Shown here one piece after another: positions 2,335-29,819 of a DNA stretch of 39,457 bases. The position numbers were made by a program, and so were the translations under genes. Each line of letters begins with the position of its first letter. Within the stretch, counting starts at the first letter, position 1. The notes under the pieces were generated by a model. The model was given only the letters and a program-made list of their open reading frames with translations. It was not told where the DNA came from and did not search any database. The DNA is from Candidatus Komeilibacteria bacterium (GTDB lineage Bacteria; Patescibacteriota; Patescibacteriia; UBA1558): NCBI GenBank assembly GCA_048538235.1, contig JBLYPX010000001.1, forward strand, positions 745,554-785,010, in the 5' to 3' direction.

Positions 2335-3654
2335 ATGGAGTATAAAAAGGGAAATAGTTTTCTTATTAAATCATGGCCACGTGCTTTTCTGCACATTGAT
2401 GCAGATGCTTTTTTCGCCTCTTGCGAACAAGCCCTTAATCCAAACCTAAAAGGTTTGCCTGTTATTACAGGGGCAGAGAGGGGTATTGTGTCTGCTGCGA
2501 GTTATGAAGCAAAAGATTTAGGAATTGGCAGAGGCATTCCTTTGTGGGAAGTTAGAAAGATTTGTCCTGACGCTATTATCCTACCTAGCGATTATGAAAG
2601 CTACTCTTTAATATCTACACGTATGTTCGACATTATGCGTCGCTTTGTACCAGTGGTTGAAGAATATTCTATTGATGAAGGATTTGCAGATCTTACTGGT
2701 ATGCGTCGTCCTTTGCACTGCTCATACCATGAAATTGGCAGACGCATAAAGGAACAAATTGAGGTTGAGCTTGGTATTACTGTTTCTGTTGGTATAGCTC
2801 CAACTAAAAGCCTTGCTAAAATTGCTGCTAATATACAAAAGCCCTCTGGTTTAACAGTTGTGCCCGGAAGCTTAATAGAAAATCTCTTAGAAAAAACTCC
2901 TATCAATAAAGTTTGGGGCTTTGGAGAAAGTACAACCAGTTATTTAAAAAGGTTTGGCATTAAAACAGCTTATGACTTCACGCTTAAAAGTAAATACTGG
3001 GTTAAACAACATTTAAATAAGACTGGATTAGAAATATGGAACGAGTTAAGAGGACAAGCAGTATATGATATAGCTGATGAGAAGCACGAAAAGTATAAAT
3101 CTATTAGCAAGACTAAAACTTTTACACCGCCCTCTACTCAAAGAAACTATTTACTTGGACAAATGATACGCAATTTAGAATCTGCTTGTATAAAAGCCAG
3201 AAGACATAATTTGGTAAGCGATAGATTAGTAATATATTTACGTCAACAAAATTTTCAAAGCTCGGGTATTGAAATAAAACTAGATAGAGCTAGCAACTCT
3301 TCCCTGCTTATGACAAGTTCTTTAAAAAAAGCTTTTAAACAAATATGGGCACCCGGCACACCTTACAGATCAACTGGAGTGGTTCTAAGTAATTTAAAAG
3401 CAGATAATAAAATACAGGAATCATTATTTACAGATAAAGTTAAAGTTATAAAAATGGAACAACTAACAAATGTAATAGATATTATTAATAATAAATTTGG
3501 TAAACACACACTACACCAAGCGTCCAGTTTATCAGTAAATTTTACCAGTCGTGGTAATAGAGAAGCAAAGAGCAGTAAATGGCAAAACCTTCTTAAAGGA
3601 GAAAACTACAGACAGCATTTATACATTCCACGCTGGTCCATTAAAGCGAATTAA
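2335..3654 (+). CDS. dinB: Y-family DNA polymerase (DinB/UmuC)
   Basis: HIDADAFFAS, SYEAK and YSIDE motifs, HhH region and little-finger domain. Confidence 0.9.
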   Translation: MEYKKGNSFLIKSWPRAFLHIDADAFFASCEQALNPNLKGLPVITGAERGIVSAASYEAKDLGIGRGIPLWEVRKICPDAIILPSDYESYSLISTRMFDIMRRFVPVVEEYSIDEGFADLTGMRRPLHCSYHEIGRRIKEQIEVELGITVSVGIAPTKSLAKIAANIQKPSGLTVVPGSLIENLLEKTPINKVWGFGESTTSYLKRFGIKTAYDFTLKSKYWVKQHLNKTGLEIWNELRGQAVYDIADEKHEKYKSISKTKTFTPPSTQRNYLLGQMIRNLESACIKARRHNLVSDRLVIYLRQQNFQSSGIEIKLDRASNSSLLMTSSLKKAFKQIWAPGTPYRSTGVVLSNLKADNKIQESLFTDKVKVIKMEQLTNVIDIINNKFGKHTLHQASSLSVNFTSRGNREAKSSKWQNLLKGENYRQHLYIPRWSIKAN

Positions 3655-11633: not shown

Positions 11634-11758
11634 AAAAATACCCATTGAAGTGCAGACAAGAAAATCAGATTTGGAAGCAATTGAGCAAAAAGCCTAATTA
11701 GATCCAAGTTTGATCCCCATGCTTGTCGTGCCTGCACTTCAACAGGTACTTTAAGTAA
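11632..11758 (-). ncRNA. Candidate rod-shaped structured ncRNA of unknown family
   Basis: Own promoter TTGACA(11793-11788)-17-TAAGCT(11770-11765); 17-bp closing stem 11639-11655/11732-11748 plus inner stems; ends in U7. Confidence 0.55.
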
Positions 11759-27932: not shown

Positions 27933-28172
27933 ATGAGATTTATTATAGGATTAATATTAATAGGTGTTGGATTCACAATGGTGTGGAAGACTGAAGGTTG
28001 GTTTAGTTTCTTTGGAAGAATAGCTTTTGCTGAAAAATATTTAGGAACAGAAGGTGGTAGTAGGTTATTTTACAAGTTAATCGGAATACTAGGAATACTT
28101 ATTGGTATGTTACTTGTTACTGGTCTTTACGATGACGTAATGGGAACAGCCACTGGTCCACTAGTAAGATAA
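27933..28172 (+). CDS. Small two-TM membrane protein
   Basis: 79 aa with two hydrophobic helices. Confidence 0.7.
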   Translation: MRFIIGLILIGVGFTMVWKTEGWFSFFGRIAFAEKYLGTEGGSRLFYKLIGILGILIGMLLVTGLYDDVMGTATGPLVR

Positions 28173-28179
28173 ATTTTAA

Positions 28180-28256
28180 GGGCCCGTAGCTCAGTTGGCT
28201 AGAGCACCTGCTTTGCAAGCAGGGGGTCGCTGGTTCGAATCCAGTCGGGTCCACCA
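28180..28256 (+). tRNA. tRNA-Ala(UGC)
   Basis: Loop TT-TGC-AA; G3:U70 identity pair present. Confidence 0.96.
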
Positions 28257-28387
28257 AAAAATCATCAACAATTTAGTTGGTGATTTTTTATTTACAAAAA
28301 TATTAAAATAATTATTGTTTAGCTTGTCAAAAAGTTGTATAATATATACATAAAGTTTTTTATACCATTAATGAAGGAGGTGATAAT

Positions 28388-28477
28388 ATGCCAGCAAAAA
28401 AAAGAAAAGTAGCAAAACGTAAACCAGCTAAGAAAGCTGCTAAGAAAAAAGTAGCTAAGAGAAGAAAGAGAAAATAA
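28388..28477 (+). CDS. 29-aa Lys/Arg/Ala-rich protamine- or histone H1-like micropeptide
   Basis: MPAKKRKVAKRKPAKKAAKKKVAKRRKRK*; SD AAGGAGGTGA 4 nt upstream; promoter TTGTTT-17-TATAAT (28315-28343); downstream terminator. Not in the ORF track. Confidence 0.85.
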   Translation: MPAKKRKVAKRKPAKKAAKKKVAKRRKRK

Positions 28478-28501
28478 CTTCAATTCTATCTAGATAGAAT
28501 C

Positions 28502-28528
28502 AAAAATCCCGTTGTTTACGGGATTTTT
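28502..28528. terminator. Terminator between the micropeptide and the convergent endoQ-like gene
   Basis: AAAAATCCCGT/ACGGGATTTTT stem. Confidence 0.85.
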
Positions 28529-28574
28529 GGTTTAAATTCTATAAATCACCACAACACAATTAAAGGTAAAATTA

Positions 28575-29819
28575 TTAAAGTAAGGACTTCTGTACTTCTA
28601 ATTCGTCCTTGGTAAATATTTCTATTTTTCCATACTGTCCATCAAAACCAGGTGTTAATTTTACTTTACCTTTTCTTACCCGCATAATAGCTTCAACAAT
28701 TCCTGAATCACATATTTTTAACAATTCGTCTTTAGATAAATTTAGTAAAACATTAAATTCATCTTTTCCAAACTTAATTATCTCTTCATACATGCTTTGT
28801 ACTTTCTTAGATTGCTTACCAACAGATAGTACGTCAGCAATAATATCCTGCAGTGGAATAAAATTTGTACAATTATATAAACTGTGGATATCTTTTTCAT
28901 CTCTATCCGCTAATTCTTCCACCCTGTACATAACTCCAAGTGTTAAAGGTTTCTTACATTTAGGGCAAATACCTTTATGTTTTTTTGTTTCTTTTGGAGT
29001 AAACGATGTGTTACATTTTCGATGTCCATCATAATGATAGATACCTTCTTCAGGATAAAACTCTAATGTCTTAACAATCTTTTTTGATTTTGGAGTGTTT
29101 ATAGCATTCCTTAATTCATCATAAGTTAATTTATCTAAATCAAACAGAGTTGCGTTACGACCAATGTTTGGCAAACTATGAGAATCTGAACTGGATAATA
29201 AATTTATTCCATCCAGCATAGACAACCTTCTGTTCATGGCTGGACTTGAAGATAATCCAGTCTCCACGGCCTTAACCTCTGACGTTAATTCTTCAAAACA
29301 TTCTTCTAAAGAATCATAGCCAGACTTTGAACCAAACATAGCAAACCATGGTGTCCAAATATGAGCTGGCACAATAAAACCTTTCTTATCTATGGACATA
29401 ACTATCTGTAACACCTCTTTTGAACTCATACCAATAATTGGTCTACCATCAGATTTTAATTTAGCCCCTCTTTGTTCTAATTCTTTATTAAACTTATCTA
29501 CCTTTTCTAAACTAGATAGAAATACACACATATGTATTCTCCTTGTTTTGTCTTTATCTCTATATATTAAAGATAACTCTGTGCTTAAAACAAACAGTAC
29601 GCCGCTATTACTTTTCTTTATTTTGTATAATCCTGACTTGCCTACCTCTTCTAAATCCTGTTTTATTTCTTTTAATCTTTGTGGGTGCGTAAAATCCGCA
29701 ACTGATATTATGTTAATACCTTTTTTCTTAGCCCAAACTTCTATATTACGAAGTGTTAGTTCTTTTGAACATGCCCTGGCATAGCCAGAGTGTATGTGTA
29801 GATCTGCTATTATTTTCAT
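28575..29819 (-). CDS. Endonuclease Q family (PHP domain + Zn finger)
   Basis: ADLHIHS, PAHIWTPW, SSSDSHS, YHYDGHRKC, CPKC..LTLGV. Confidence 0.88.
   Translation of the reverse strand: MKIIADLHIHSGYARACSKELTLRNIEVWAKKKGINIISVADFTHPQRLKEIKQDLEEVGKSGLYKIKKSNSGVLFVLSTELSLIYRDKDKTRRIHMCVFLSSLEKVDKFNKELEQRGAKLKSDGRPIIGMSSKEVLQIVMSIDKKGFIVPAHIWTPWFAMFGSKSGYDSLEECFEELTSEVKAVETGLSSSPAMNRRLSMLDGINLLSSSDSHSLPNIGRNATLFDLDKLTYDELRNAINTPKSKKIVKTLEFYPEEGIYHYDGHRKCNTSFTPKETKKHKGICPKCKKPLTLGVMYRVEELADRDEKDIHSLYNCTNFIPLQDIIADVLSVGKQSKKVQSMYEEIIKFGKDEFNVLLNLSKDELLKICDSGIVEAIMRVRKGKVKLTPGFDGQYGKIEIFTKDELEVQKSLL

Follow-up and report, generated by a model that had tools for sequence, protein, structure and literature searches.

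A conserved lysine-rich micro-gene next to tRNA-Ala in Patescibacteria and its predicted polycationic product

The C-terminal tail of eukaryotic histone H1 is a disordered polycation, rich in lysine, alanine, and proline and carrying motifs of the PAKK and AAKK type, that neutralizes the charge of DNA. Ribosomal micro-proteins such as bS22, bL37, Thx, bL36, and eL41 are likewise tiny and very basic, and their genes often lie in translation-related neighborhoods. The chlamydial protein Hc2 (hctB; PF07382, NF038052) has 165-237 aa, and its length varies among strains by repeat number (excerpts of PMC2848022). Basic repeats of lysine, alanine, and proline also occur in AlgP of Pseudomonas, in the proteins of NF038053, and in the H1-like domains of DdbA and HupS (excerpts of PMC9239181, PMC3643593, and PMC11229371); AlgP organizes polyphosphate granules (excerpts of PMC9239181) and illustrates that proteins of this kind may act on polyanions besides DNA. 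Here we describe a 29-codon open reading frame (ORF), the micro-ORF, in a 39,457-nt stretch of Candidatus Komeilibacteria bacterium DNA (GenBank assembly GCA_048538235.1, contig JBLYPX010000001.1, positions 745,554 to 785,010 of the forward strand). This whole stretch is called the window below. The micro-ORF of the window is a real, conserved, unannotated, and independently transcribed micro-gene.

The micro-ORF encodes the peptide MPAKKRKVAKRKPAKKAAKKKVAKRRKRK, with 13 lysines, 5 arginines, and no aspartate or glutamate. Lysine and arginine account for 62% of the residues, the rest being alanine, proline, and valine, and the net charge is approximately +18. The counts given in a preliminary description of the window (18 of 29 residues basic and none acidic) are therefore correct. 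Its proposal that we are dealing with a real, stand-alone micro-gene is borne out by conservation of the gene, by codon statistics specific to one frame, and by conserved expression signals, which are taken up in turn.

As the peptide itself is not searchable by homology, the neighboring genes served as search handles. In the window the micro-ORF is preceded by tRNA-Leu, tRNA-Val, a gene for a 79-aa membrane protein, and tRNA-Ala, in that order; opposite to it lies a convergent gene for a 414-aa PHP/TIGR00375 (EndoQ-like) protein, with the 5S and 23S rRNA genes beyond. By the first route, homologues of the EndoQ-like protein led to 160 loci in genomes and metagenomes, 145 of which had enough downstream sequence. 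A K/R-rich, acid-free ORF, convergent to the EndoQ-like gene and 89-660 nt downstream of it, was present in 32 of these 145, and in a few further loci the micro-ORF was 2-3 kb away. All three of the nearest relatives found by this route (74, 57, and 55% identity) have it. The second, independent route, through homologues of the 79-aa membrane protein, gave six more loci of the window type, 75-90% identical, which also have the first 26 nt of the ORF, the 3' palindrome, and the terminator in common. Together the two routes yielded 32 distinct complete homologues of 13-102 aa. The recurrent gene order is 23S-5S-EndoQ, then the convergent micro-ORF, tRNA-Ala, the 79-aa membrane protein, and tRNA-Val; the convergent arrangement with a common terminator is conserved across loci. 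Across related loci totaling approximately 1 Mb, ORFs of at least 18 aa that were K/R-rich and acid-free occurred at the homologous position only, and the sole other matches of the scan were three unrelated 15-aa ORFs. The search suggested earlier, downstream of tRNA-Ala in genomes of the candidate phyla radiation, was thus positive in many loci, although not in all.

Some related loci showed other sequence at this place. Locus L172 (Komeilibacteria contig JANLIN010000112.1) has three GC-rich tandem repeats of approximately 200 nt after tRNA-Ala, where the micro-gene would be (~2900-3500), and L165-L167 have units of approximately 130 nt in which the 5' part of tRNA-Ala recurs. In L170 (~2925-2965) the promoter, the Shine-Dalgarno sequence (SD), and the ATGCCA start are as in L169 and are followed by MPRGNGSGPPQG to the end of the contig; the sequence is a variant, or else the assembly is chimeric at the repeat.

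Codon statistics were taken from the 32 distinct complete members, comprising 1318 in-frame codons. The frame of the micro-gene contains no GAN (Asp/Glu) codon and no stop; one of the other two sense frames contains 75 GAN codons and 57 stops, and the other 272 and 116. Every member of the family starts with ATG, and the closest pairs differ nearly always at third positions (14 synonymous versus 2 non-synonymous differences). Although lysine makes up 53% of the residues, the longest run of A in the family genes does not exceed 8. When the lysine codons were shuffled synonymously in 2000 trials, A-runs of 9 or more arose in 17.5 genes on average and in at least 11 genes in every trial. The order of lysine codons fits selection against slippage on poly-A and, since avoidance of slippage is relevant only where the frame matters, we counted it as evidence for coding. 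Exclusion of acidic codons, interchange of lysine and arginine, and avoidance of A-runs all point to selection on the complete peptide.

The same statistics were used to consider the opposite strand. A hydrophobic antisense ORF of 54 aa (28319-28483, minus strand) could be the real gene, or the micro-ORF could be the chance product of a purine-rich stretch; we regard either as very improbable indeed. Two antisense frames are open over most of the family, and one of them has its third codon positions in common with the sense frame and looks nearly as conserved (13 synonymous versus 3 non-synonymous), so that counts of synonymous and non-synonymous differences alone cannot pick the strand. The openness of the antisense frames, however, follows automatically from the lack of TTA, CTA, and TCA codons on the sense strand. 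In the window this antisense frame lacks a start codon, and it has neither an SD nor a promoter, and the frame of the 54-aa ORF shows 1 synonymous versus 15 non-synonymous differences. The sense strand was chosen because of its start codon, present as ATG in all members, its SD, found in extended form in the window type and in several other lineages, and its complete lack of acidic codons. Chance ORFs of this kind were also not seen elsewhere in the ~1 Mb of loci.

The expression signals of the window locus are listed in Table 1. The hairpin at the end of the tRNA-Ala unit has a folding energy of -14.6 kcal/mol (z = -4.5) and is conserved in L161, L164, and L169; because this separate terminator ends the tRNA-Ala unit, the micro-ORF is an independent transcription unit. 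Its promoter was read from the sequence, and the support for it is comparative: the block ATTAAAATAWWTATTGTTT-N5-GTCAAAAAGTTGTATAAT is near-invariant in the alignment of L161, L164, L168, L169, and L173/L174, and the spacer contains the conserved GTCAAAAAGTTG (28326-28337). A scan for consensus promoters misses it because the -35 element fits the consensus at only 3 of 6 positions. The A/T-rich block preceding the -35 may act as an UP element. The promoter of its own that had been proposed for the micro-ORF can thus be retained on the evidence of the five related loci.

Table 1. Positions of the features discussed, in the window and in related loci
Feature	Locus	Position	Strand	Remarks
79-aa two-helix membrane protein	window	27933-28172	+	Motif GG(T/S)RLFYKLIG; between tRNA-Val and tRNA-Ala
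Terminator hairpin with T-run at the end of the tRNA-Ala unit (AAAAAATCATCAAC / GTTGGTGATTTTTT)	window	28256-28289	+	14-nt arms, 93% complementary
A/T-rich block 5' of the -35, UP-element-like (...ATATTAAAATAATTA)	window	28296-28314	+	Near-invariant in 6 window-type loci; 5' untranslated region variable
Promoter	window	28315-28343	+	-35 TTGTTT, 28315-28320; 17-nt spacer; -10 TATAAT, 28338-28343
Shine-Dalgarno sequence AAGGAGGTGAT	window	28374-28384	+	11 nt; 3 nt 5' of the ATG
Micro-ORF	window	28388-28477	+	29 codons plus stop; peptide MPAKKRKVAKRKPAKKAAKKKVAKRRKRK
Perfect 18-nt palindrome ATTCTATCTAGATAGAAT in the 3' untranslated region	window	28483-28500	+	7-bp stem, CUAG loop
Bidirectional intrinsic terminator (AATCAAAAATCCCGT / ACGGGATTTTTGGTT)	window	28498-28532	.	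z = -6.05
EndoQ-like gene, 414 aa	window	28575-29819	-	PHP domain; Cys-rich zinc-finger-like segment
Leader motif TTCTCCCCATGCTCGTCG	L018	5469-5520	-	Likewise in L011, L013, L015, L020, L022, L025, L029, L030, L033
Leader motif TTCTCCCCATGCTCGTCG, further loci	L041, L045, L089, L099, L115, L125, L128, L146, L159			
SET-domain gene	L049	4292-4752	-	Between tRNA-Ala and micro-ORF; C-terminal half 36.5 bits

The SD of the micro-gene is the longest match to the complement of the 16S rRNA 3' tail in the window when both strands are scanned; the window holds no 16S gene, and the canonical 16S 3' tail was assumed for this scoring. Only about 4 of 29 large ORFs of the window reach a match of at least 6 nt, a share near background, and rplS (27313), next door, has none. 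The form AGAAGGAGGTGA is kept in relatives. Both the near-perfect SD and its rarity among the other genes, the latter within the window, had been correctly noted. The earlier statement that the micro-gene has the strongest expression signals of the window holds for the SD; the promoter was not shown to be the strongest. Similarly, the terminator ascribed to the micro-ORF is a real hairpin (z = -6) but not an exclusive one, since it is bidirectional and is common to the micro-ORF and the convergent 414-aa gene, an arrangement that relatives share.

Just 5' of this terminator, most members, that of the window included, have a 3' element centred on TCTAGA. The palindrome that it forms in the window is weak when folded alone (-3.7 kcal/mol, z = -1.8). 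The same palindrome is found in L169, while L164 and L168 have ACTCTATCTAGATAGAGT, with a compensatory change from T-A to C-G; the element of L081 reads CTCTTT/AGAGAG with a G-U pair, and distant members have TTTCTAGAGAAAC(A)5-7 at the same place. The 3' element is a candidate RNA hairpin, processing site, or protein site.

The family as a whole consists of 53% lysine, 18% alanine, 9% valine, 8% arginine, and 6.5% proline, with no aspartate or glutamate among the 1318 codons, and is built of short repeats of the (A/V/P)-x-K-K-K type in variable copy number. Versions of 29 (window), 57, 86, and 102 aa occur in loci whose promoter, start, and 3' end are the same. Among the window-type loci the ORF has 86 codons in L169, 57 in L164, 102 in L168, at least 69 in L161, and at least 50 in L173/L174, the last two being cut. 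The first 26 and the last 12 nt of the 86-aa gene of L169 are identical to those of the window gene; both peptides begin with MPAKKRKVAK, and the C-termini are nearly the same (KRRKRK in the window and AKRKKRK in L169). Since relatives with the same ends carry 57-102 aa, the 29 codons of the window represent a contracted version of a repeat protein. As judged from these comparisons, length changes by gain and loss of repeats, as in chlamydial Hc2 and in other H1-like proteins of bacteria.

From its sequence, the micro-gene is probably translated efficiently into a peptide without a fold. The reading to which we give a somewhat better than even chance is that the micro-protein is a disordered polycation, present in abundance, with an electrostatic affinity for nucleic acid and with the nucleoid as its most likely site. 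Binding would be unspecific with respect to sequence, and the peptide would act in the manner of the C-terminal tail of H1 or of Hc2, neutralizing and compacting the chromosome, and possibly the RNA, of a very small cell. The abundance of the peptide, its binding to DNA or RNA, and its role there we infer.

Profile searches place the family near these proteins in composition. The only profile to respond was Pfam HC2, with which an 80-aa member (L032) gave 33.2 bits (E = 7e-8) against a cut-off of 40. The best member reached 18.5 bits with the Hc2 model NF038052 of NCBIfam (cut-off 135) and 19.2 bits with NF038053, the Burkholderia-type H1-like model (cut-off 80). The winged-helix globular domain of H1 (PF00538) was not detected by Pfam in the window peptide or in seven longer members. 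Hc2 and the micro-family are both rich in lysine and alanine and of low complexity, and both consist of short basic repeats that differ in copy number among close relatives; however, Hc2 has 165-237 aa as against 13-102 aa for the micro-family and 29 aa for the window member, the phylum, locus, and RNA signals differ, and DNA binding of the micro-protein is predicted only. The micro-family also has the composition of the K/A/P-rich disordered H1 tail, with a mode of action presumed to be the same, but it is a stand-alone peptide and not a tail and has no globular domain; the resemblance is most likely convergent. AlgP and the other proteins with similar basic repeats differ in being approximately 200 aa or longer or in being fused to folded domains. 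By these tests the resemblance to H1 and Hc2 is compositional only, and the micro-protein is not a member of either family. The likeness to H1 and Hc proteins claimed earlier therefore stands for composition, whereas the window peptide itself matched no such family. Identity as a protamine was also considered and was rejected, arginine not being dominant: the family has 8% arginine and 53% lysine, and the window peptide 5 arginines and 13 lysines. We would describe the micro-protein, on the strength of its sequence features, as a new stand-alone, miniature form of the bacterial H1-like basic repeat proteins.

Homology searches with individual peptides were blank. A 48-aa relative used as query retrieved only itself and a 79-aa relative nothing; a profile of 10 sequences had no match among 1.84 billion representative proteins. 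The exact window peptide was not found in a collection of 15 billion proteins, in support of the earlier claim that it is overlooked by gene callers, and none of 14 family sequences was present in the collection by exact look-up. These blanks reflect a limit of the method with short sequences of low complexity and are not evidence of absence. In the literature searched, the present family was not described.

Several considerations weigh against a polycation acting on the nucleoid. The window peptide has no match in Pfam, NCBIfam (E <= 1), or the sequences of the PDB, and the HC2 match below the cut-off reflects composition. The shortest members, with 13-20 residues, are short for a chromatin protein, and the 29-aa length in the window could be an assembly collapse of the repeats, which measure approximately 45 nt. 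The neighborhood is translation-related (rRNA, tRNAs, rplS, and rluD), and most relatives have a conserved hairpin leader at the 5' end, such as is found in autoregulated mRNAs of ribosomal proteins.

The last two of these points are those expected of a micro-protein associated with the ribosome or rRNA, an equivalent in Patescibacteria of bS22, bL37, Thx, or eL41 that would fill a cavity in rRNA or aid assembly and be co-regulated with translation. We consider this, the main alternative, unlikely. The micro-ORF is flanked on one side by the tRNA cluster and rplS and on the other by the 23S-5S operon, in a conserved order; its SD is exceptional where the genes of the window seldom use one; and 20-21 of the first 28 members have the hairpin leader. 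The established ribosomal micro-proteins resemble the micro-family in size range, in strong basicity, and in their translation-related surroundings. In contrast to the micro-family, however, with its 8-fold range in length even among close relatives, they are of fixed length, conserved, Arg-rich, and non-repetitive, as proteins that bind in a pocket keep both length and sequence. The peptide is K-rich and of low complexity, with no aromatic or hydrophobic anchors and no conserved core. No match to ribosomal micro-protein profiles or to solved ribosomal chains was found in Pfam, NCBIfam, or the PDB, and the leader loop does not mimic the 5S or 23S rRNA of its own genome. It is the 8-fold variation in length, driven by repeats, that leads us to favor a non-specific binder of polyanions over a ribosomal protein fitting a pocket.

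The leader just mentioned contains the invariant 18-nt motif TTCTCCCCATGCTCGTCG, which is located at the likely transcript start in 20-21 of the first 28 distinct members and is closed by a GGAGAAAG-like sequence or by GAAAGG, with inserted hairpins in some. It is absent from the window, where the sole near-match is an unrelated site at 11717, and the window-type lineage as a whole lacks it. Folds of single leaders agree on an outer stem and a CAUG stem, with z ranging from -0.2 to -3.2 and no compensatory changes; the predicted structure is plausible. With Rfam 15, neither the window nor any of 15 loci gave a match that reached the gathering threshold; permissive scans gave only terminator-like chance matches, and the motif had no match in viral contigs. 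We regard the TTCTCCCCATGCTCGTCG leader as a candidate new cis-regulatory RNA. E. coli 5S rRNA contains UCUCCCCAUGC, as does the leader. Mimicry of 5S rRNA by the leader was rejected, as the 5S rRNAs of the genomes that carry it are without UCUCCCCAUGC, and there was no match to 23S rRNA.

Two further observations concern members with the leader. A sequence resembling a DnaA box, TGTGGA(T/A)AA, occurs 70-190 nt 5' of the micro-ORF ATG in 18 of the 28 distinct members (e.g. L018, L022, and L099). It is confined to loci carrying the leader, usually approximately 90 nt 5' of it and approximately 20 nt after TATAAT, and none is present in the window. Separately, the 3' end of the 16S rRNA of L018 (8534-8560, minus strand) reads GGAUUAUCUCCUUUCU and not the canonical GAUCACCUCCUUUCU; a 16S 3' end of this type may be the reason for the weak or odd SDs (AAAGG, GGAGAAAG) of leader-type members.

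Conservation of such elements invites the view that the RNA or the act of translation is what functions, with the peptide as a by-product. Roles of this kind would be sensing of lysyl-tRNA or of ribosome stalling, action as a dual-function small RNA, or modulation of the convergent EndoQ-like gene by the opposing transcript. The 18-nt leader motif of the relatives, the 3' TTCTAGA, and the promoter block are conserved at least as well as the peptide, which has only 13 aa in its shortest form, and the convergent layout with a common terminator is kept. We nevertheless find this improbable. No gene in the same orientation, which the micro-ORF could attenuate, lies downstream of it; in several loci the micro-gene is 0.6-3 kb from the EndoQ-like gene; the versions with 57-102 aa exceed the length of a leader peptide; and selection on the whole peptide is indicated by the lack of acidic codons, by the interchange of lysine and arginine, and by the avoidance of slippery A-runs.

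Another polyanion or an extracellular site could also be the target of the peptide. It might organize polyphosphate granules in the manner of AlgP, an H1-like protein whose composition it equals (excerpts of PMC9239181), or it might be an exported polycation acting on the envelope of an episymbiont's host, polycationic peptides being able to cross or perturb membranes (excerpts of PMC9606270). Neither a signal peptide nor a hydrophobic segment is present in the micro-protein, though, and no transporter or ppk gene lies beside the micro-ORF in the window. We judge this class of function quite improbable.

Binding to nucleic acid by a disordered polycation could be taken further. The micro-protein might be a bulk "peptide polyamine," that is, a very highly expressed oligo-lysine, tunable between 13 and 102 aa, which would be the main counter-ion of DNA and RNA in cells of minimal metabolism. 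The 5' hairpin (with the invariant UUCUCCCCAUGCUCGUCG loop region) and the 3' UUCUAGA of its own mRNA would sense how much of it is present, and in some lineages a SET lysine methyltransferase encoded alongside would mark it, the whole amounting to a minimal bacterial chromatin. We hold this extended version to be doubtful. A SET-domain gene directly 5' of the micro-ORF was found in a single locus, L049, where it is split over two overlapping frames by a frameshift or a sequencing error; there is no SET gene near the micro-ORF in the window. A chlamydial SET protein reportedly methylates Hc1 and Hc2, and the SET neighbor in L049 is also a point in favor of the H1/Hc2-like reading.

Evidence for a transcript was sought in public sequencing runs. 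None holds the window; the shares were at most 0.07 and probably represent conserved (tRNA) parts of other organisms. For the homologue of L029 (Kuenenbacteria), a 162-nt contig identical to the micro-gene unit was present in a groundwater metatranscriptome under two entries, probably duplicates of a single data set. These entries contained no other sequence specific to the 6.5-kb L029 locus, and the contig suggests a short, abundant transcript of this homologue. As the run also holds contigs of 31 kb, carry-over of DNA is possible; under carry-over, the chance of the match landing on the micro-gene would be approximately 4%. The organism of L025 was not found in wastewater metatranscriptomes.

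As to the neighboring genes, the EndoQ-like protein of the window, whose gene directly follows 23S-5S, scored 182 bits with TIGR00375, below the cut-off of 326.6, and its relatives match MJ0043_C. The 79-aa membrane protein is kept at the same position in many Patescibacteria (45 homologues) and has no Pfam family; one source labels it YkgB-like. Two related loci have unusual RNA genes: L011 (2251-2382) has a 5S rRNA with an insertion of approximately 25 nt, 132 nt in total, and in L018 (6662-6893) a group I intron match (100 bits) adjoins tRNA-Ile.

Patescibacteria are a large share of bacterial diversity, and the organization of their chromosomes and ribosomes is almost unknown. A conserved micro-protein that has strong expression signals yet escapes gene callers, hidden Markov models, and word-based searches would be absent from all current models of these cells, and the combination of locus, frame-specific codon statistics, and conserved RNA signals offers a way to find such genes. 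The family has also exposed two conserved and previously undescribed RNA elements, which could be autoregulatory. It raises the question whether the smallest bacteria use a stand-alone peptide resembling a histone tail instead of, or alongside, folded nucleoid proteins.

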